Positions 1 through 10,175 of a stretch of 10,234 bases of DNA are shown here, piece after piece. Every line of letters starts with the position of its first letter. Within the stretch, counting starts at the first letter, position 1. The DNA is from a virus. Taxonomy: Duplodnaviria > Heunggongvirae > Uroviricota > Caudoviricetes. Location: IMG/VR virus record IMGVR_UViG_2681813268_000007; one strand, given 5' to 3'. The notes beneath the pieces were generated by a model. It was not told the origin of the DNA. It made no database searches and saw only the letters and a list, made by a program, of their open reading frames with translations. The position numbers and the translations under genes were made by a program.

Positions 1-49
1 CCCCGTCAGTAGCTGAACAGGAGGGACAGCTGATAGAAACAGAAGCCAC
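1..49 (-). CDS. insA: IS1 InsA, N-terminal fragment only (start codon GTG at 49-47, runs off window)
   Basis: Minus-strand translation from 49 gives V/M-ASVSISCPSCSATDG, the InsA N-terminus. Confidence 0.7.
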   Translation of the reverse strand, partial: MASVSISCPSCSATDG

Positions 50-104
50 TGGAGCACCTCAAAAACACGATCATACACTAAATCAGTAAGTTGGCAGCAT
101 CACC
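1..104 (-). mobile_element. IS1 end (partial; element continues beyond window start), terminal inverted repeat at about 82-104
   Basis: Reverse complement of 1-104 matches the IS1 left end as I recall it (GGTGATGCTGCCAACTTACTGAT...GAGGTGCTCCAGTGGCTTCTGTTTCTATCAGCTGTCCCTCCTGTTCAGCTACTGACGGGG); one apparent mismatch near position 69 relative to my memory of the canonical sequence. Confidence 0.8.
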
Positions 105-155
105 TTTTGTCTCTATGTTGATATAACCGTTTGTACTTATAAACCTGGAGGCATC

Positions 156-368
156 GTGGAAAAAATAAAGAAACTATTTAGTAGTAAATACGCAGTCATA
201 CGTCGTGATGACCTGTCAGTTATAGTCGAAATGGATTACTTCCCTGAAACCAAAAAATCAATGATGTATCGTAATGGTCGAAAGGCAATTTTTTTACCGA
301 TGAGGGTAAGTGACATTATGGGAAATGATAAACTGCTGGATGAATTGCGAGTCAGAGCATCCTGTTAG
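156..368 (+). CDS. hypothetical small protein (70 aa), AT-rich moron-like ORF
   Basis: GTG start at 156 preceded by GGAGG (147-151); clean 70-codon frame; base composition visibly more AT-rich than neighbouring genes; no recognisable motif. Confidence 0.4.
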   Translation: MEKIKKLFSSKYAVIRRDDLSVIVEMDYFPETKKSMMYRNGRKAIFLPMRVSDIMGNDKLLDELRVRASC

Positions 369-392
369 TATTGGCATTAATTCTGGTATACT
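365..392 (+). promoter_or_regulatory. putative sigma70 promoter with extended -10 (TGgTATACT at 384-392; weak -35 TTAGTA at 365-370)
   Basis: Motif match only, read by eye; positioned about 50 bp upstream of the ATG at 440. Confidence 0.2.
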
Positions 393-439
393 ACATAACG
401 GGCTGAACACCCATTCTACTGCGCCAGCGGAGAACTACG

Positions 440-1039
440 ATGGCGCATATACAACTGATCAAACAAACCTCTTCCGGATTACTTCTCCCGGCGACGCCGG
501 AGAGTTGCGATTTTCTGCATCAAATCAAAACAGGTGAGTGGATACACGCAGACTTTAAGCGTGTGCGTAACTACGCATTCCACAAGCGTTTTTTCAAACT
601 CCTGCAACTGGGATTCGATTACTGGACTCCGGTCGGTGGGGCGATCACGCCTCGCGAACGAGAACTGCTGTCTGGTTTCGTTGATTACCTGTGCGAATCA
701 GTAGGTCGGGAACATACGCCAGCTCTGAGCGAAGCCGCAGAGCAATATCTGAATACAGTTGCGACACGCAGAACCCGGGATACGGCATTGCTAAAGTCGT
801 TTGAGGCTTTTCGCGAGTGGGTAACCATTCAGGCTGGATTTTACACCGAACATTTTTATCCGGACGGTAGCCGCGGGCGTCGGGCAAAATCCATCGCTTT
901 TGCGAATATGGACGAAACCGAGTTTCAGCAGGTTTATAAATCTGTTCTGAATGTGCTGTGGAACTGGATTCTGTTCCGTAAATTTTCCTCTCCGGAACAA
1001 GTCGAAAATGTGGCCGCGCAGCTGCTGGAGTTTGCGTAA
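440..1039 (+). CDS. conserved lambdoid nin-region protein of unknown function (DUF1367-like, 199 aa)
   Basis: ATG at 440 with GGAG 7 nt upstream; long clean ORF; stop overlaps next start (TAATG at 1037-1041); family name from memory, unverified. Confidence 0.6.
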   Translation: MAHIQLIKQTSSGLLLPATPESCDFLHQIKTGEWIHADFKRVRNYAFHKRFFKLLQLGFDYWTPVGGAITPRERELLSGFVDYLCESVGREHTPALSEAAEQYLNTVATRRTRDTALLKSFEAFREWVTIQAGFYTEHFYPDGSRGRRAKSIAFANMDETEFQQVYKSVLNVLWNWILFRKFSSPEQVENVAAQLLEFA

Positions 1040-1329
1040 TGGTGGATTTACGTAAAGCGGCGCGGGGGCAGATGTGCACCGTCAGAATTCCTGGCTACTG
1101 CAATCACGATCCGGAAACGTCTGTGCTGGCGCATTACCGACTGGCGGGAACGTGCGGAACAGCGATAAAGCCACACGATATGCAGGCAGCGATTGCCTGT
1201 AGCTCGTGCCACGATTTAATCGACGGGCGGGTAAAAACCAGCGATTACACCAAAGAAGAATTACGCCTGATGCATGCAGAAGGTGTTTTTCGCACACAAG
1301 AAATCTGGAGAAAGGAGGGATATTTATGA
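1039..1329 (+). CDS. ybcO: YbcO-like protein (DUF1364, putative zinc-binding nuclease, 96 aa)
   Basis: 96-aa product MVDLRKAARG...CTVRIPGYCNHDPETSVLAH...IACSSCHDLIDGR resembles DLP12 YbcO as I recall it, including its Cys/His pattern; translationally coupled on both sides. Confidence 0.7.
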   Translation: MVDLRKAARGQMCTVRIPGYCNHDPETSVLAHYRLAGTCGTAIKPHDMQAAIACSSCHDLIDGRVKTSDYTKEELRLMHAEGVFRTQEIWRKEGYL

Positions 1330-1880
1330 TTTACCCAACGAATACAGGAAAAAGCGGAGAACACCTTCGTCTCACCACGCTGGAAAGTGTCTGGATTCAG
1401 GGAAAACTACGTATGTGGGGGCGCTGGTCGTATATTGGTGGCGGTAAGACGGGGAATATGTTTAACCTGATGTTGACCTCTAAAAAGCTGACAAAAACGG
1501 CAATTAACGAGGCGCTCCGGAGGATGAAAAAAGCAGGTCTGAACAAGTCTGAACTTGAGGCTTTTTTGCGGGATATGATTAACGGTAAGCAAAAGAGCTG
1601 GCTGGCGCATTGTACTGATGCAGAGGCGTTATGTATTGATCGGGTCATAAGTGAGGTGCTGGCAGAGCATCCAGGATTGATTAGCGTCCTTCGGCAACGG
1701 TATGAGGGGCGGGGGATGACCAAACGCAAAATGGCTGAACTGCTGAATGATGCACACCCGAAATGGAGTTTAAGAACCTGTGAAAGACGCATTGAGCATT
1801 GGCTAAAGGTGGCAGAATTTATTTTGTACAAACCAATGGTTATGGCTTTTGGTATAGAGAAAAAAGTTATTGCTTTTTGA
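1326..1880 (+). CDS. putative late-gene antiterminator (Q-like, phage-82/QuuQ-type), 184 aa
   Basis: ATG at 1326 with AGGAGGGA upstream and ATGA overlap with ybcO-like stop; last gene before a strong terminator and the late region; N-terminal LRMWGRW resembles the LERWGAW motif I recall in QuuQ-type Q proteins. Assignment is positional plus weak motif. Confidence 0.5.
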   Translation: MIYPTNTGKSGEHLRLTTLESVWIQGKLRMWGRWSYIGGGKTGNMFNLMLTSKKLTKTAINEALRRMKKAGLNKSELEAFLRDMINGKQKSWLAHCTDAEALCIDRVISEVLAEHPGLISVLRQRYEGRGMTKRKMAELLNDAHPKWSLRTCERRIEHWLKVAEFILYKPMVMAFGIEKKVIAF

Positions 1881-2512: not shown

Positions 2513-2605
2513 GCACTCTGCTTTTATTCCGATTAACTGTGGGTGGTTTGTTGGATAGAGTGTGAGGTGTACTGGCAATAGCGGACACTACCATTTGTTC
2601 TTTTT

Positions 2606-3424
2606 TTAAGCAGCCATCTGATGATATTTTTCCCTGAAGGCTGCCGGGGAGATATTCCCCAGACGAGAGTGACGACGCTGACGATTGTAGAAAATCTCAA
2701 TGTATTCCCGTATTACTGAGATGGCTTCATCCCGGTTATTAAAACGATAGTGGCTCAGGCTCTCATTTTTCAGCGTTCCCCAGAAGCTTTCCATCGGAGC
2801 GTTGTCGTAACAGTTACCTTTACGCGACATTGATGTTTTCAGACCAGACTGCTCCTGTATGACCCGGTAATCGTATGCGCAGTACTGTGAACCTCGATCA
2901 GAGTGGTGGATTAGCCCGGCAGGTGGGCGCTGGCTCCTGAGCGCCATAAACAGGGCTTTACCTGTCAGCTCTTTTGTCATGCGCTCTCCCATGGCGTAGC
3001 CGACAATTTCGCACGTATAAACATCTTTGATGCCAGCGAGGTACAACCATCCCTCCTGTGTGGCAACATACGTCAGGTCCGCCACCCAGACCTGATTTGG
3101 TGCTGTAGGAGCGAACGTCTGGTTCAGCAGATTTGGCGCAACTGGCAGATTGTGGTTCGAGTTCGTAGTCGCTCTGAACTTGCGTTTCTGCTTACAGCGT
3201 AGCCTTAGCTCCTTACGAAGACGTGCCAGTCGGTCACGACCAACGATGATGCCATTCTCTGCCAGCTCCGTCTGGAGCCGCCGGGTTCCATATGTTTCGC
3301 GAGTGCGGATATGTGCCACCTTAATCTCCAGTTTTAGCCGCTCATCACTTTGTTTTCTGTCTGAGGGTTCATGCTGTACCCAGTTGTAATAACCGCTCCT
3401 GGATACACCAAATACCTGACACAT
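2606..3424 (-). CDS. IS3-family transposase OrfB (DDE catalytic domain); in vivo made as OrfAB fusion by -1 frameshift, so the true frame extends upstream to about 3510
   Basis: 272-aa ORF with IS3-type OrfB sequence (MCQVFGVSRSGYYNW..., ending ...YDNAPMESFWGTLKNE...GNISPAAF); the -1 frame upstream of its Met reads SNSVFCTGVAEKYALIEQWRQQFPIEA, continuous with it. Confidence 0.85.
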   Translation of the reverse strand: MCQVFGVSRSGYYNWVQHEPSDRKQSDERLKLEIKVAHIRTRETYGTRRLQTELAENGIIVGRDRLARLRKELRLRCKQKRKFRATTNSNHNLPVAPNLLNQTFAPTAPNQVWVADLTYVATQEGWLYLAGIKDVYTCEIVGYAMGERMTKELTGKALFMALRSQRPPAGLIHHSDRGSQYCAYDYRVIQEQSGLKTSMSRKGNCYDNAPMESFWGTLKNESLSHYRFNNRDEAISVIREYIEIFYNRQRRHSRLGNISPAAFREKYHQMAA

Positions 3425-3459
3425 CGCTTCAATGGGAAATTGTTGTCGCCATTGTTCGA

Positions 3460-3762
3460 TTAACGCGTATTTTTCAGCGACTCCTGTGCAAAATACGCTG
3501 TTGCTTTTTTTAATATATCTCGCTCAAGGCGAGCTTCATTTAACGCCTTACGCAGTTGCAGAATTTCAGATTCCAGTTCAGCCACCGTGCGGGAACCAGG
3601 AGTACCGAGCCCTTTTCTGGCGGCGGTAACCCATTGTCCTAAAGTGCCTTCAGGAAGAGATAATCGGGAAGCGCCTTCACTGATCGAAAGTTGATTTTCA
3701 AGAACCGTTCTGACAGCTTCGGCTTTGAACTCTTTAGAGTAACGTTGGGTTTTTCTGCTCAT
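3460..3762 (-). CDS. IS3-family transposase OrfA (helix-turn-helix / leucine-zipper subunit), 100 aa
   Basis: MSRKTQRYSKEFKAEAVRTVLENQ... is typical IS3/IS600 OrfA; ATG at 3762 with GGAG-type RBS on the minus strand. Confidence 0.85.
   Translation of the reverse strand: MSRKTQRYSKEFKAEAVRTVLENQLSISEGASRLSLPEGTLGQWVTAARKGLGTPGSRTVAELESEILQLRKALNEARLERDILKKATAYFAQESLKNTR
3505..3511 (-). other. programmed -1 ribosomal frameshift slippery site (A7 run followed by G on the minus strand) joining OrfA to OrfB
   Basis: Plus-strand T7 at 3505-3511; OrfA zero-frame reads TTA AAA AAA GCA; OrfB-like sequence continues in the -1 frame. Confidence 0.7.
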
Positions 3763-3826
3763 TATTAGCTCCTTCTGATGCCATTCTATTTCAGGAAGGA
3801 GTGTCCGTTAAACTCAGGCTACCTCA

Positions 3827-3837: not shown

Positions 3838-3921
3838 CTGAAAAACGGCACAGGACGTTAAACGTGCTGGTGGTCAGATGAGTTTGCAGATGTGATGACA
3901 TATGGTTATTATTCTGCCTCC

Positions 3922-3998
3922 GGCCCTTTAGCTCAGTTGGTCAGAGCGAGCGACTCATAATCGCCAGGTCGCTGGTTCAAGTCCAGCAAGGGCCACCA
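3922..3998 (+). tRNA. tRNA-Ile2 (CAU), second copy
   Basis: Identical to 2070-2146. Confidence 0.85.
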
Positions 3999-3999
3999 A

Positions 4000-4076
4000 C
4001 CACCACTAGCTCATCCGGATAGAGCATCAACCTTCTAAGTTGACGGTGCGAGGTTCGAGTCCTCGGTGGTGGGCCA
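4000..4076 (+). tRNA. tRNA-Arg (UCU), second copy
   Basis: Identical to 2148-2224. Confidence 0.85.
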
Positions 4077-4078
4077 GC

Positions 4079-4154
<76 letters not shown>

Positions 4155-4157
4155 TAT

Positions 4158-4232
<75 letters not shown>

Positions 4233-4846
4233 GCGAGATTTGAGACGAAGGTTGTTATTTGCACTGACACAATATTGTGTGGGAATGTCTGACTCCTTAC
4301 CATCTCCTGTTCTGTGATGTTGTTTTGTTGCAGTTCCAGTGCTCTTTTTTCAGCACCAGAATGGTGCATTGTCGGTCAGGTTACGTAGTGAACCTCTGGC
4401 AGGGGACTGATGATTCATCATTCTGGTGTTGTAAATATCTCTTCGGACAACTTACAAAATATTCTAAGCAAACCCCGGGAACACACTCTTAACTGCCTTG
4501 GCTGGCGGTTTTTTGTACAGCGCTCGGTATGTGTGAGCTGGAAATCAGATTTTGCATGGACTGGAATCATGCTGTTATTTAGGGGCGAAGAACTGGCTTT
4601 TTCTTCCGCCTTCTCACCAGTAACGATTAGAAAAATAATGAAATGCCCCCCTCCGGGGAGGAGGACCGTAGAAAAAAGGACCCGCCAGCAAAAACATTGG
4701 GGATGAACAGCTTTCGCTACTCAGATTGCTGGCGGGTAAAGTTCCTCATGAATTAAGAATGCTACGCGATCTTTTTTAATGGAAATGAAAATTATTGTCA
4801 ATTAGTCGTGCGTGTTTTTTCATACAATATTGGTAAAGGTGATTCA

Positions 4847-4912: not shown

Positions 4913-5128
4913 ATGTATCAGATGGAAAAAATATCAACAGGCATTGCCTACGGCACCTCCGCCGGCAGTGCCGGCTACTGGTTTTTGCAGTGGTTGGATC
5001 AGGTCAGTCCATCACAGTGGGCTGCGATTGGTGTGCTGGGAAGTCTGCTTCTGGGGCTTCTGACTTATCTGACAAATCTGTATTTCAAAATAAGAGAAGA
5101 CAAGCGTAAGGCTGCGAGAGGTGAATAA
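4913..5128 (+). CDS. S: phage-21-type pinholin S (71 aa) with dual-start motif (Met1 and Met4: antiholin and holin forms)
   Basis: [28 protein letters not shown]...[13 protein letters not shown] matches S21 as recalled; two hydrophobic segments; stop overlaps R start (TAATG at 5126-5130). Confidence 0.9.
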
Positions 5129-5625
5129 TGTCGCCATCATTACGCAAGGCTGTTGCAGCTGCTATTGGTGGTGGGGCTGTTGCTATAGCATCTGTGTTAA
5201 TCACTGGCCCAGGTGGTAACGATGGTCTGGAAGGTGTCAGCTACATACCATACAAAGATATCATTGGTGTATGGACTGTATGTCACGGACACACCGGAAA
5301 AGACATCATGCTCGGTAAAACGTATACCGAAGCAGAATGCAAAGCCCTCCTGAATAAAGACCTTGCCACTGTCGCCAGACAAATTAACCCGTACATCAAA
5401 GTCGATATACCGGAAACAACGCGCGGCGCTCTTTACTCGTTCGTTTACAACGTGGGCGCTGGCAATTTCAGAACATCGACGCTTCTTCGCAAAATAAACC
5501 AGGGCGATATCAAAGGCGCATGTGACCAGCTACGTCGCTGGACATATGCTGGCGGTAAGCAATGGAAAGGGCTGATGACCCGTCGTGAGATTGAGCGTGA
5601 AGTCTGTTTGTGGGGGCAGCAATGA
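5128..5625 (+). CDS. R: SAR endolysin (phage-21 R-type lysozyme with N-terminal signal-anchor-release domain), 165 aa
   Basis: N-terminal Gly/Ala-rich weakly hydrophobic SAR segment ([20 protein letters not shown]) followed by a lysozyme-like catalytic region (GLEG...YKD...WTVCHGHTG); coupled to S and Rz. Confidence 0.9.
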
Positions 5626-6086
5626 GCAGAGTCACCGCGATTATCTCCGCTCTGGTTATCTGCATCATCGTCCGCCTGTCATGGGCTGTTAATCATTACC
5701 GTGATAACGCCATTACCTACAAAGAGCAGCGCGACAAAAACGCAAGAGAACTGAAGCTGGCGAACGCAACCATTACTGACATGCAGCAGAGACAGCGTGA
5801 TGTTAATGCACTCGATGCTAAATACACGAAGGAGTTAGCTGATGCGAAAGCTGAAAATGAAACTCTGCGCGCTGATGTTGCCGCTGGTCGTCGTCGGTTG
5901 CACATCAAAGCAGTCTGTCAGTCAGTGCGTGAAGCCACCACCGCCTCCGGCGTGGATAATGCAACCAGCCCCCGACTGGCAGACACCGCTGAACGGGATT
6001 ATTTCACCCTCAGAGAGCGGCTGATGACGATGCAGATGCAACTGGAAGGGGCACAGGAGTATATCCGCACTCAGTGCATTAAGTAG
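5622..6086 (+). CDS. Rz: Rz i-spanin (inner-membrane spanin subunit)
   Basis: ATG at 5622 overlaps R stop (ATGA); N-terminal TM segment ([14 protein letters not shown]) then coiled-coil-like charged region; an alternative GTG start at 5610 is possible. Confidence 0.85.
5842..6024 (+). CDS. Rz1: Rz1 o-spanin (outer-membrane lipoprotein), embedded in the +1 frame within Rz
   Basis: Signal peptide with lipobox (LVVVGC), proline-rich stretch PPPPP; GGAG 7 nt upstream of ATG at 5842; lies wholly inside Rz in a different frame. Confidence 0.8.
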
Positions 6087-6128: not shown

Positions 6129-6479
6129 ATGCCATCACTAATCCCACGTGCCTGCCGTAAGCGTGGATGTGCAGGTACAACCACAGACAGTTCGGGTTAC
6201 TGCGATAAACATCGCGGTGAAGGCTGGGTGCAGCACCAGCGCGGACTGAGCCGCCACCAGCGTGGCTATGGCTCAAAATGGACGGTGATTCGTGCCCGTA
6301 TTCTGAAGCGCGATAAAGGTCTGTGTCAGTTGTGTCTGCGTGTCGGTGTGGTGAGCGAGGCGAAAACCGTCGACCACATCATCCCGAAAGCGCATGGCGG
6401 AACAGACGCAGACAGCAACCTGCAGAGTCTGTGCTGGCCCTGCCATAAAGCGAAAACAGCGCGCGAACGAATCCGGTGA
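6129..6479 (+). CDS. HNH endonuclease (phage packaging-associated), 116 aa
   Basis: Cys-rich N-terminus (CRKRGCAG...CDKH) and HNH core (DHIIPKAHGG...N...LCWPCH); located immediately upstream of terminase genes. Confidence 0.85.
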   Translation: MPSLIPRACRKRGCAGTTTDSSGYCDKHRGEGWVQHQRGLSRHQRGYGSKWTVIRARILKRDKGLCQLCLRVGVVSEAKTVDHIIPKAHGGTDADSNLQSLCWPCHKAKTARERIR

Positions 6480-6501
6480 TAATTATTCTCACTTGTAGGG
6501 A

Positions 6502-6562
6502 GGGGCGGGGCAAATCCCTGTGACCTGACGTCTTCCGGACTGCCCGCCCCATCGTTTTTTTA
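6502..6562 (+). terminator. GC-rich imperfect hairpin (GGGGCGGGGCA ... TGCCCGCCCC) followed by a T7 tract; candidate terminator and/or part of the cos region
   Basis: About 10-bp stem with one bulge, 28-nt loop, then ATCGTTTTTTTA; sits between HNH and terS. Confidence 0.45.
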
Positions 6563-6600
6563 TACCCGCGAAAAATGAAATTTAACCAGGAGTGCCGCAT

Positions 6601-7095
6601 ATGGCTGGAACGGCGGGGCGTTCCGGGCGTCGCCCCAAGCCAACGGCGCGCAAGGCGCTGGCCGGAAACCCCGGCAAGCGAGCCCTGAACAAAGATGAAC
6701 CTGTTTTTACGCCCATCAAAGGTGTTGAGCCACCAGAGTGGTTCGCTGAAGAAGATCTCCCTCTCGCCACGATCATGTGGCAACTGACAACCAAAGAACT
6801 CTGCGGTCAGGGCCTGCTGTGCGTGACTGACCTGGCGGTACTTGAGCGGTGGTGCGTGGCCTATGAGTTCTGGCGACGTGCCGTGAAAAATATTGCCATA
6901 CAGGGCAACACCATCACCGGTGCAATGGGCGGCAGGGTCAAAAATCCGGAGCTGACCGCCAAAAAAGAACAGGAGTCCGAGATGAGCAGCACGGGGGCAA
7001 TGCTCGGACTCGACCCCAGCAGCCGCCAGCGTCTGATTGGCCTGGCGGGGCAGAAGAAAGCCACTAACCCGTTTCTGAAAATTATCGAATCATGA
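6601..7095 (+). CDS. terminase small subunit (P27/HK97-type), about 164 aa
   Basis: ATG at 6601 with AGGAG (6586-6590) upstream (in-frame GTG at 6592 is the alternative); basic N-terminus; product resembles P27-family TerS as recalled; ATGA overlap with terL. Confidence 0.8.
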
Positions 7096-8825
7096 GCCGG
7101 AAATCTTACCCCAACGTAAATGCTGCAAATCAGTATGCCCGGGATGTCGTGCGCGGAAAGATTGTTGCCTGCCAGTTTGTGATTCAGGCCTGCCAGCGCC
7201 ATCTTGATGACCTGATGGCGGAAAAAAGTAAGTCGTTTCGTTACCGCTTCGACAAGGACCTGGCTGAACGGGCCGCGAAATTTATTCAGCTGTTGCCGCA
7301 CACCAAGGGGGAGTGGGCATTCAAACGGATGCCCATCACGCTGGAGCCGTGGCAGCTATTTGTGATCTGCTGTGCGTTTGGCTGGGTCAATAAAGGCACC
7401 CGGTTGCGCCGCTTCCGGGAGGTGTACACCGAAATCCCCCGTAAGAACGGCAAATCAGCAATCTCTGCCGGTGTTGCCCTGTATTGTTTTGCCTGTGATA
7501 ACGAGTTTGGCGCGGAAGTGTATTCCGGTGCCACGACAGAGAAACAGGCGTGGGAAGTCTTTCGCCCGGCGCGACTGATGTGTAAACGCACACCCATGCT
7601 GACGGAAGCGTTCGGGATTGAGGTTAACGCCTCAAACATGAACCGTCCGGAGGATGGCGCGCGGTTTGAACCGCTGATCGGCAACCCAGGTGATGGTTCA
7701 TCACCCCACTGTGCCGTGGTTGATGAATATCACGAGCATGCCACCGATGCGCTTTATACCACAATGCTTACCGGGATGGGGGCGCGACGTCAGCCACTGA
7801 TGTGGGCCATCACCACCGCCGGGTACAACATTGAGGGGCCGTGCTACGACAAGCGGCGGGAAGTCATCGAGATGCTCAACGGCTCGGTGCCTAACGATGA
7901 ACTGTTCGGGATCATCTATACCGTTGATGAAGGTGACGACTGGACCGGCCCGCAGGTGCTGGAAAAAGCCAATCCAAATATTGGCGTGTCGGTTTATCGC
8001 GAATTTTTGTTAAGTCAGCAGCAGCGTGCGAAAAATAACGCCCGTCTGGCAAACGTCTTTAAAACAAAACACCTCAATATCTGGGTGTCGGCGCGTTCGG
8101 CGTATTTCAACTTGGTGAGCTGGCAGAGCTGCGAGGATAAATCACTGACCCTTGAGCAGTTCGAGGGGCAGCCGTGCATTCTGGCCTTTGACCTGGCGCG
8201 TAAGCTGGATATGAACAGCATGGCGCGACTTTATACCCGCGAGATTGACGGTAAAACGCATTACTACAGTGTGGCCCCGCGTTTCTGGGTACCGTATGAC
8301 ACGGTGTACAGCGTCGAGAAAAATGAAGATCGACGGACAGCCGAACGCTTTCAGAAATGGGTGGAAATGGGCGTTCTGGCCGTTACCGATGGTGCGGAGG
8401 TGGATTATCGCTACATCCTCGAGGAGGCCAAAGCGGCGAACAAAATCAGCCCGGTCAGTGAGTCACCCATCGACCCCTTCGGGGCGACCGGGTTGTCACA
8501 TGACCTTGCTGATGAAGACCTGAATCCCGTCACTATCGTCCAGAACTTCACCAATATGTCCGATCCGATGAAAGAGCTGGAAGCAGCGATTGAATCGGGA
8601 CGTTTTCATCATGACGGCAATCCCATCATGACCTGGTGTATCGGCAACGTGGTCGGCAAAAACATGCCGGGTAACGATGATGTGGTGAAACCCGTCAAAG
8701 AGCAGGCGGAAAACAAAATCGATGGTGCAGTTGCGCTGATTATGGCGGTTGGCAGAGCCATGCTGTACGAGAAAGAAGACACGCTGTCTGACCACATTGA
8801 GTCCTACGGGATCCGCTCGCTTTAA
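7092..8825 (+). CDS. terminase large subunit (ATPase plus nuclease), 577 aa
   Basis: Long ORF with Walker-A-like motif (PRKNGKS), acidic nuclease-type motifs downstream; coupled to terS. Confidence 0.9.
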
Positions 8826-8836
8826 CTGAGGTAATT

Positions 8837-9019
8837 ATGATCATGCTGATTCTCGCGCCTCTGGTGGGCGTGCTGGGTGCGCTTTTGCTGGCGTATGGTG
8901 CCTGGCTGATTTATCCCCCGGCGGGTTTTGTTGTTGCCGGGGCGCTGTGCCTGTTCTGGTCGTGGCTGGTGGCGCGATATCTCGACCGTACACGGCAGTC
9001 TGTCGGCGGAGGTAAATAG
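8837..9019 (+). CDS. small hydrophobic protein (60 aa, two predicted TM helices), unknown function
   Basis: ATG at 8837 with GAGGT 4 nt upstream; product [26 protein letters not shown]...[14 protein letters not shown] is strongly hydrophobic; its stop abuts the GTG I take as portal start. Confidence 0.45.
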
Positions 9020-10175
9020 TGTTCTTTTCGGGATTATTTCAACGAAAAAGCGATGTGCCGGTGACCACGCCAGCAGAACTGCTGATGCTATCGGGCTGTC
9101 ATACGACACCTATACCGGAAAGCGGATCAGTAGCCAGCGGGCCATGCGCCTGACGGCGGTCTATTCTTGCGTCAGGGTGCTGGCAGAGTCTGTTGGTATG
9201 CTGCCCTGCAGTCTCTACAAAATCAGCGGTACCCTGAAAACACGGGCGGTGGATGAACGACTGCATAAGTTGGTTTCGGCAAAACCTAATGGCTACATGA
9301 CACCGCAGGAATTCTGGGAGCTGGTTATTGTCTGCCTGTGTCTACGGGGGAATTTTTACGCCTACAAGGTAAAGGCACTGGGAGAAGTGGTGGAGCTTCT
9401 TCCGATAGATCCGGGCTGTGTGGAACCGAAGCTGAACAGCCAGTGGCAGCCGGTTTATCAGGTGACGTTTCCGGATGGTTCCGTGGATGTGTTGACCCAG
9501 AATGAAATCTGGCATGTGCGCACCCTGACGCTGGATGGACTTGTCGGGCTGAATCCCATTGCGTATGCGCGTGAGGCCATTTCACTGGCAGCGGCAACCG
9601 AGGAGCACGGTGCCAGGTTGTTTAGTAATGGTGCGGTGACATCCGGTGTGTTGCGTACGGAACAAAAGCTCACGCCGGATGCTTACGAGCGTCTGAAGAA
9701 AGATTTTGAGGAGTGTCACACGGGGCTTGGCAATGCTCACCGCCCGATGATTCTGGAAATGGGGCTGGACTGGAAGTCGATGGCGCTGAACGCCGAGGAC
9801 AGTCAGTTCCTGGAAACCCGCAAGTTTCAGCTGGAAGAAATCTGTCGTCTGTTCCGGGTGCCGTTGCACATGGTGCAGAACACCGATCGCGCCACCTTCA
9901 ACAATATCGAAGAGCTGGGGCTGGGATTTATCAACTATTCACTGGTGCCGTATCTGACCCGCATCGAACAGCGGATCAACACCGGACTGGTACGAAAAAG
10001 TAAGCAGGGCGTTTATTACGCCAAATTTAACGCCGGGGCGTTACTGCGCGGGGATATGAAGTCCCGTTTTGAAGCCTACGCCACCGGGATCAACTGGGGA
10101 ATTTACTCTTCCAATGACTGCCGCGACCTGGAAGATATGAATCCGCGTCCCGGTGGTGTAATGCCGATCAGTTAA
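9019..10175 (+). CDS. portal protein (HK97 family), with apparent frame disruption near 9079-9150: N-terminal 44 codons (GTG 9019 to stop 9153) in one frame, remainder (to 10175) in the adjacent frame; first in-frame ATG of the main frame is 9144
   Basis: Main frame contains the portal-like motif RAMRLTAVYSCVRVLAESVGMLP close to any possible N-terminus; GTG at 9019 has GGAGGT 5 nt upstream and encodes MFFSGLFQRKSDVPVTTPAEL; the span is not a multiple of 3. Confidence 0.7.

Follow-up and report, generated by a model that had tools for sequence, protein, structure and literature searches.

ORF70, the small gene that lies next to an IS1 end in this prophage fragment, probably encodes a small antirepressor of the GfoA/Rem class. 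We put the probability of this reading, which was drawn from sequence comparison and genomic position, at about 65%. The window, by which we mean the entire 10,234-nucleotide stretch of viral DNA (Caudoviricetes; IMG/VR record IMGVR_UViG_2681813268_000007) that was analysed, begins inside IS1 and continues through ORF70 into nin-region genes (Table 1). Small antirepressors decide when prophages of the Rac/Qin/Gifsy type switch on; the cargo of such prophages includes defence systems and virulence genes as well as toxins and cell-division inhibitors. To our knowledge, just a handful of such antirepressors have been studied, namely GfoA, GfhA, GftA, FsoA, and Rem. A preliminary description of the DNA, made from its letters, had listed ORF70 as an orphan with the look of a horizontally acquired moron and had named a regulatory protein as one option. 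The orphan label proved wrong, and the regulatory option is consistent with the homology to GfoA that is presented below.

Table 1. Position of the features discussed, in window coordinates
Feature	Position	Strand	Description
IS1, terminal 104 bp (insA-proximal end)	1-104	-	99-100% identity to IS1 ends in >5000 plasmid records
Candidate IS1/phage fusion promoter	91-119	+	-35 TTGGCA at 91-96 (IS1), 17-nt spacer, -10 TATGTT at 114-119 (phage)
Remaining native 5' leader of ORF70	105-155	+	51 bp including the Shine-Dalgarno sequence GGAGG; alignment to intact prophages starts at 105
ORF70	156-368	+	70 aa, GTG start; phrog_1813, predicted homologue of GfoA/Rem-class small antirepressors
DUF1367 gene	440-1039	+	PF07105, E 2.9e-96; conserved downstream partner in the irsA-homologue position
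YbcO/DUF1364 gene	1039-1329	+	Pfam and PHROG matches; nin-region
DUF1133 Q-like antiterminator gene	1326-1880	+	Pfam and PHROG matches; nin-region
IS3-family element	2563-3826	-	orfA 3460-3762, orfB 2606-3424; flanked by two tRNA-cluster copies

ORF70 is a complete and conserved gene

The preliminary description had reported a reading frame with a good ribosome-binding site, a GC content clearly below that of its neighbours, a position directly beside an IS1 terminus, and flanking nin genes, all of which were borne out. The Shine-Dalgarno sequence GGAGG was read directly at positions 147-151, 4 nt 5' of the GTG codon, and IS1 ended at base 104, 51 bp upstream of the gene. The GC content of ORF70 was 37.1% (GC3 34.3%), versus 50.0% for the DUF1367 gene, 51.5% for YbcO, and 45.8% for the Q-like gene, i.e. 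37% against 46-52% in round figures. The nin genes downstream were those for DUF1367, YbcO/DUF1364, and the DUF1133 Q-like antiterminator.

The 213-bp CDS was present in 175 of the 5426 complete E. coli genomes that were scanned (~3%), and in 173 of the 175 genomes holding the segment, window positions 105-440 were conserved at an identity of at least 95%. The exact 70-aa protein occurred in 3755 blocks of the assembly index. Comparison of ORF70 with a 71%-identical variant gave a dN/dS of 0.18 when the annotated frame was used; the two shifted frames gave 0.44 and 1.9. ORF70 is under purifying selection and is a real, conserved phage gene.

The identical 213-bp CDS was annotated in the complete phage record PP818812.1 and in E. 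coli M19. In the window, the frame of ORF70 was open upstream into IS1 as far as a stop codon at 87-89. A longer gene cut by IS1 was nevertheless ruled out, as intact prophages annotate the same 213-bp CDS; because both start and length agree with that annotation, ORF70 is complete and not truncated. The annotation of this gene was inconsistent across sources, with calls of 45, 70, and 83 aa. The 83-aa calls of ORF70 homologues (P0006; cluster of 277 sequences) start further upstream, at a GTG codon for which the window has GTT (117-119), and the 45-aa calls (P0014 and P0016), which start from an internal ATG (window position 231), were named 'bacteriocin' in NCBI.

An earlier AlphaFold model of ORF70, built on a shallow alignment, was unusable (pLDDT 54). 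The AlphaFold2 monomer had a pLDDT of 82.6, with four strands and a C-terminal helix predicted, and structure comparison gave no match speaking for or against the antirepressor assignment. No signal peptide or transmembrane segment was evident in the ORF70 sequence. Pfam returned no match and NCBIfam noise-level matches only, with no toxin or defence model in either.

The record PP818812.1 (L001/L075) deserves a separate remark. It is named 'Actinobacillus phage vB_Apl-pPE4', and it was 98.5% identical to E. coli prophage DNA across the region. Its genes, among them hok, ydaT, and one for a DicA-like repressor, are typical of E. coli lambdoid prophages. The stated host looks doubtful, and contamination or mislabelling is possible.

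The phrog_1813 family is homologous to GfoA

ORF70 matched the phrog_1813 HMM with an E-value of 1.6e-32, residues 2-70 being aligned with profile positions 13-81 of 91. An exhaustive profile search returned 31 representative clusters at 50% identity, and a word-indexed profile search returned 297 clusters at 90% identity, with members in Escherichia, Shigella, Citrobacter, Klebsiella, Enterobacter, Leclercia, and Hafnia. The conserved core of the family was YAVIRCxDxxVVA..xFPxxxRALMYRxGxxxxFxPL....I.GTP.LF..ML.RAGY. It was the profile match, the 297 clusters, and this core that removed ORF70 from the orphans. The C-terminal third of ORF70, GNDKLLDELRVRASC, departed from the family consensus, GTPTLFTQMLERAGYRV, and the distant members in Citrobacter, Klebsiella, Enterobacter, and Salmonella phage SPN3UB were ~30% identical to ORF70. 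Since small antirepressors are unmatched in the Pfam and NCBIfam copies searched, the proteins with a name among the 120 phrog_1813 matches listed are all called 'hypothetical', bar one whose UniRef name began 'Bacteriophage protein'.

The breadth of this family also bears on whether ORF70 is a gene at all. A short, AT-rich frame with a non-ATG start beside an IS element could be a chance ORF in IS-flanking junk, an outcome the preliminary description had tied to a lack of conservation and of expression evidence. Conservation was found and refutes this explanation, which we regard as practically untenable: the phrog_1813 match and the clusters extend across genera with conserved motifs, the low dN/dS was confined to the annotated frame, and the CDS is present in intact phages.

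To obtain GfoA, we searched viral contigs for primer pp866, whose sequence is published (PMC3121763). This yielded the GfoA ORF of 82 aa, which starts with TTG or GTG, and its C-terminal region (...GYRVTPPSD...) agreed with the annealing part of the reverse primer. A 66-sequence family alignment headed by ORF70 (A4) was matched to GfoA by hhalign with a probability of 98.2% (E 4.4e-14, 75 columns). ORF70 alone gave a weak BLASTP match to GfoA (E 4e-5; 33% identity over 39 residues), and with a narrow E. coli-only profile the hhalign probability was just 46%. When searched against PHROGs, GfoA matched phrog_340 best (E 7.6e-21) and phrog_1813 with an E-value of 3.5e-11, and SPN3UB gp59 matched phrog_1813 (E 2.7e-38) and phrog_340 (E 4.7e-6). 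On these profile comparisons, the phrog_1813 family is homologous to the characterised Gifsy-1 antirepressor GfoA. What was found thus amounts in effect to a confident match to a known nin-region gene, the result that the preliminary description had said would count against its own reading of an orphan moron.

The Rem family is phrog_340 by PHROG assignment. Direct homology of ORF70 to Rem, suggested by their common position after hokD, was rejected: neither ORF70 nor its family was aligned with Rem by BLASTP, and the hhalign probability was 0.5%. As these direct comparisons were negative, the link between ORF70 and Rem is positional, and transitive via GfoA only. Homology to GftA was likewise rejected. 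A 73-aa ORF between dinI (STM2621) and STM2620 in LT2 Gifsy-1 matched the gftA cloning primers at both ends and was assigned to phrog_4847, and no similarity between GftA and the ORF70 family was detectable. GfoA and GfhA are themselves merely distant relatives of GftA (PMC3121763).

One family member, P0130, carried the precomputed Pfam tag PF27490, which was absent from the Pfam copy searched. Accessions near it, PF27493 (YdaE) and PF27398 (KilR), are K-12 prophage proteins, and for this reason a family of the Rem/GfoA kind may by now be included in a recent release of Pfam.

ORF70 occupies an antirepressor slot

In the Gifsy prophages, a LexA-controlled operon combines dinI with an irsA homologue and, between the two, a small antirepressor gene that starts with GUG or UUG (Lemire et al., PMC3121763). 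The gene order in Gifsy-1 of LT2 was dinI, gftA, STM2620, and further on Q. The DUF1367 protein of the window was 53% identical (E 2e-73) to STM2620, whose gene is directly 3' of gftA, and therefore ORF70 occupies the antirepressor slot. Salmonella phage SPN3UB had the order DinI, family member, a 200-aa gene annotated NinB/Orf, and Q, and the DUF1367 gene of the window carried the same NinB/Orf PHROG label as that 200-aa gene. Family members in Citrobacter, Klebsiella, and Enterobacter were located between replication genes and RusA/DUF968/Q, where each followed, on one strand with it and at a distance of ~40 bp, a gene for a 77-aa DinI; the Klebsiella loci retained dinI and were without a DUF1367 neighbour.

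ORF70 was followed by DUF1367 in all ORF70 loci, with true cargo varying around the pair. The hok gene was upstream of ORF70 in L001, L076, L078-L081, and L083-L086, and some intact prophages had hok together with phd/doc. Rem in Qin directly follows hokD, and ORF70 in intact prophages likewise follows hok. In Rac/Qin/Gifsy-type lambdoid prophages the family thus had a fixed position, with dinI or hok on one side and DUF1367 (the irsA slot) on the other. In size and place, ORF70 was a 70-aa stand-alone protein gene upstream of DUF1367-YbcO-Q and, in intact relatives, 6-7 kb from the repressor.

At L003 (E. coli M19), a phd/doc-type toxin-antitoxin pair was located at 5145-5828, between hokD and the module of terminator, spacer, and ORF70. 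In L004-L013 (Citrobacter, Klebsiella, and Enterobacter), the cargo next to the dinI-antirepressor pair was highly variable and comprised a colicin-domain pore-forming gene, a SIR2_2 + AAA_31 pair, and a BstA-like gene. The site adjoining the dinI-antirepressor operon looks like a hotspot for defence genes and other cargo.

Such cargo might suggest that ORF70 is itself a horizontally acquired moron (toxin, immunity, anti-defence, or accessory gene) unrelated to the lysis-lysogeny switch, as the preliminary description had proposed. That proposal was right in so far as ORF70 is a real small gene of distinct composition, with a GC content of 37% against ~50% around it, and it would fit a region rich in hok, phd/doc, colicin, SIR2+AAA_31, and BstA genes, a terminator and spacer of its own upstream, and the name 'bacteriocin' that a source gave to some truncated calls. 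The moron itself, however, was unsupported. The position of ORF70 is fixed and its family is homologous to the life-cycle regulator GfoA; the DUF1367/irsA-slot gene always follows it, while the true cargo varies; and no secretion or membrane segment and no toxin or defence model in Pfam or NCBIfam was evident. We consider a moron quite unlikely.

The invariant adjacency to DUF1367, with its PHROG label of NinB/Orf-like protein and no predicted terminator between 368 and 440, could also mean that ORF70, together with the nin genes for DUF1367 and YbcO, serves DNA metabolism or recombination and does not act on a repressor. This seems improbable, as deletion of the Gifsy irsA homologue was without effect on induction and the small ORF was necessary and sufficient (PMC3121763), and as the Klebsiella family member keeps dinI but not DUF1367. 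YbcO/DUF1364 and the Q-like gene are probably on the same transcript as the genes upstream of them. The stop codon of ORF70 and the start of DUF1367 are 71 bp apart, and this gap contains an extended -10 motif, TGGTATACT, at 384-392; judged by its sequence, it could be an internal promoter for DUF1367-YbcO-Q that is independent of the IS1 disruption.

The native upstream region carries no LexA box

Gifsy-1 and each of the five family loci linked to dinI had a LexA box, with 16-18 of 20 consensus positions, at 35-40 bp upstream of dinI. For ORF70, in contrast, the 400 bp upstream contained neither dinI nor a CTG-N10-CAG or near-consensus LexA site in seven intact loci and the window. ORF70 is thus not part of a LexA-controlled dinI-antirepressor operon of the Gifsy type, and with both dinI and the LexA box missing, the Gifsy regulatory logic is absent here. 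The E. coli/Shigella branch of phrog_1813 appears to have lost, or never to have had, SOS control.

In intact loci, ORF70 was preceded by a strong intrinsic terminator, AACCCGCTTCGGCGGGTTTTTT, and then by a conserved AT-rich spacer of ~190 bp, in which no plus-strand sigma-70 match was above 8/12 and thus no convincing promoter was found. Identity between the differing upstream contexts (hok; hok with phd/doc) resumed just upstream of the terminator. Since this marks a recombination boundary, ORF70 seems to move between prophages as a unit with its terminator and spacer. As to translation, the GTG start of ORF70 stood behind a strong ribosome-binding site, and gftA and gfoA have been reported to start with GUG and UUG, respectively (PMC3121763).

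IS1 has replaced part of the native upstream region

Bases 82-104 were the reverse complement of the IS1 terminal inverted repeat, the element ran on leftward beyond the window, and homology to uninterrupted prophages started exactly at base 105. The near-identical loci L077, L081, and L082 contained the full 768-bp IS1, which ended 51 bp before ORF70 with insA/insB on the minus strand and is therefore transcribed away from ORF70. In these three loci, IS1 was placed between the T-run of the terminator and TTTTGTCTC, ~134 bp of the spacer was missing, and no target-site duplication was found around the element. The loss of ~134 bp without target duplication is the hallmark of an adjacent deletion mediated by IS1; rearrangements of this class are reviewed in PMC9330008. 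What the preliminary description had missed is that IS1 did not merely land nearby, but replaced ~134 bp of the native upstream region of ORF70. A scan of GTDB representative genomes for the IS1/phage junction gave no match.

The junction created a candidate fusion promoter, with 9/12 positions matching the sigma-70 consensus; it was the sole plus-strand match in bases 1-700, and the best plus-strand match in the native spacer was 8/12. IS1 fusion promoters have been documented (Prentki et al. 1986, as cited in PMC9330008). As the 768-bp IS1 replaced ~134 bp of the spacer, any native control of ORF70 is gone in this lineage, and any expression of ORF70 would therefore depend on the possible IS1/phage fusion promoter.

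With its control removed, ORF70 may be an intact but silent relic in a defective, IS-riddled prophage, an explanation that is compatible with membership in an antirepressor family. The spacer was replaced by IS1 without target duplication, insA points away from ORF70, an IS600-like element and duplicated tRNA clusters follow downstream, and L077 and L082 were without the whole left arm, including the repressor. On the other hand, the CDS was 100% identical to the allele common in intact prophages and kept its ribosome-binding site, the 9/12 fusion promoter match spans the junction, L081 still has a 139-aa repressor ~9 kb upstream, and other prophages can be targets of an antirepressor in trans (PMC3121763). 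We regard a silent relic as possible, though we lean against it.

Candidate target repressor and proposed function

All of the intact ORF70-bearing prophages retrieved (PP818812.1, L076, L078-L080, and L083-L085) had a divergent immunity region, in which a 129- or 139-aa repressor faced an 80-aa HTH protein and ydaT. These repressors matched HTH_3/HTH_31 only and were without a domain for autoproteolysis (RecA-dependent autocleavage), i.e. they were of the short DicA/RacR/GfoR type. Compared over the full length, they showed 28-30% identity to both DicA and the LT2 Gifsy repressor. The C-terminal signature LLELFNQLPxSEQ was common to all of them, with the form LLELFNALPESEQ in DicA and LLSLFNQLPEAEK in Gifsy. 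The repressor is outside the window; the near-identical locus L081 (HE616528.1) had the 139-aa type ~9 kb upstream, and in L077 and L082 it was gone with the whole left prophage arm.

The same ORF70 allele occurred with both the 139-aa and the 129-aa repressors, which are 61% identical to each other, and the 71%-identical ORF70 variant occurred with the 129-aa type. Repressor/antirepressor co-variation in the retrieved loci gave no specificity signal. Because one allele occurs with two repressor types, no specific pairing of ORF70 with a repressor was demonstrated.

The dinI-linked members of phrog_1813 are almost certainly functional equivalents of gfoA. By analogy with GfoA, GftA, and Rem, the ORF70 protein would bind the short DicA/RacR/GfoR-type repressor of its prophage (an HTH domain with a C-terminal LLELFNQLPxSEQ helix), and such binding would free the repressor from its operators, so that the early promoters would be derepressed. 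That ORF70 itself binds a repressor, and which one, is what we infer from these counterparts. ORF70 may possibly also act in trans, as FsoA of Fels-1 does.

A further proposal is speculative, and we think it unlikely. The hok-linked E. coli/Shigella branch of phrog_1813 would be an SOS-independent antirepressor, and the conserved AT-rich spacer would encode its native trigger. After replacement of that spacer in the Shigella-type lineage, the IS1 fusion promoter would give constitutive or IS1-dependent expression, and the DicA/RacR-type repressors both of this prophage and of other cryptic ones could be targets of the protein in trans. If so, an IS1-rewired ORF70 would alter the expression of toxic or defence cargo of resident cryptic prophages.

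The prophage is a mosaic

The window was 99.9-100% identical to L077, L081, and L082 up to base 3826, the end of an IS copy, and then diverged. Further downstream, the lysis genes (4922-5872) were 98% identical to those of L081, and the HNH/terminase/portal block (6129-10175) was not found in L077, L081, or L082. The prophage is a mosaic joined at IS copies.

The IS copy concerned is the IS3-family element in Table 1, which we take to be IS600. A cluster of four tRNA genes was present twice, at 2070-2380 and 3922-4232, within a repeat of ~396 bp (about 1986-2381 and 3838-4233). Each cluster contained a tRNA with anticodon cat (Met by ARAGORN, Ile in RefSeq), Arg-tct, Thr-tgt, and Gly-tcc. Since a ~396-bp duplication around an IS is no normal target duplication, it suggests that recombination between IS copies in two related prophages produced it.

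Comparison with known systems

For the window itself the result is ordinary: an intact regulatory gene was stranded by an IS1-mediated deletion in a decaying prophage. For the family, the antirepressor assignment of phrog_1813 would give a testable function to a gene that many Shigella assemblies and ~3% of the complete genomes of E. coli contain. Its use lies mainly in an annotation fix and in a comparison lineage for Rem, and its general interest is modest.

GfoA, GftA, and GfhA are antirepressors; the Gifsy antirepressor binds a short, non-cleavable repressor and frees it from DNA, and inactivation of the repressor by GfoA switches on the Salmonella Gifsy prophage (PMC3121763). An A2B2 complex has been reported for GfoA with its repressor GfoR. 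GfoA and ORF70 are alike in being small (82 versus 70 aa), in their non-ATG start, and in a common core motif. Both genes are outside the immunity region, directly 5' of the DUF1367/irsA-slot gene and before Q, and in both cases the repressor of the host prophage is short and without a protease domain. They differ in that ORF70 is without dinI or a LexA box and has upstream of it hok or phd/doc, followed by a terminator and then an AT-rich spacer; the GfoA-type arrangement of dinI and LexA box is complete in other phrog_1813 members but not at ORF70. The C-terminal third of ORF70 is also divergent, and the best PHROG of GfoA is phrog_340, not phrog_1813.

GftA (Gifsy-2 and LT2 Gifsy-1) resembles ORF70 in its slot, between dinI and a DUF1367-type gene, its size class, and its GUG start. 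It differs in belonging to phrog_4847, without detectable similarity to the ORF70 family. FsoA of Fels-1 resembles ORF70 in its independence of LexA, and the repressor on which it acts in trans is that of another prophage (PMC3121763). Tum of phage 186 and AntC of N15 are LexA-controlled antirepressors, as cited in PMC3121763. As far as that citation describes them, they resemble the role proposed for ORF70 in that a small protein binds and inactivates a non-cleavable repressor; Tum is unlike ORF70 in its size, which is roughly double, and in containing a fused DinI-like half, and Tum and AntC belong to different phage groups.

Rem of the Qin prophage was found by iterative searches from GfoA and derepresses the DicA-controlled dicB promoter (dicBp) 165-fold (Ragunathan et al. 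2023, PMC10448788). Rem is in phrog_340, and the downstream gene in Qin is annotated ydfU, not DUF1367, in both of which it is unlike ORF70. Each of the two connects to GfoA by sequence, and they share a position directly after hok/hokD, before the nin/Q genes and several kb from the immunity region, a repressor of the DicA-like class, and the absence of known SOS control. Beside Rem, the ORF70 branch would be a second E. coli antirepressor lineage without SOS control, and with two such lineages the trigger of these antirepressors becomes approachable by comparison.
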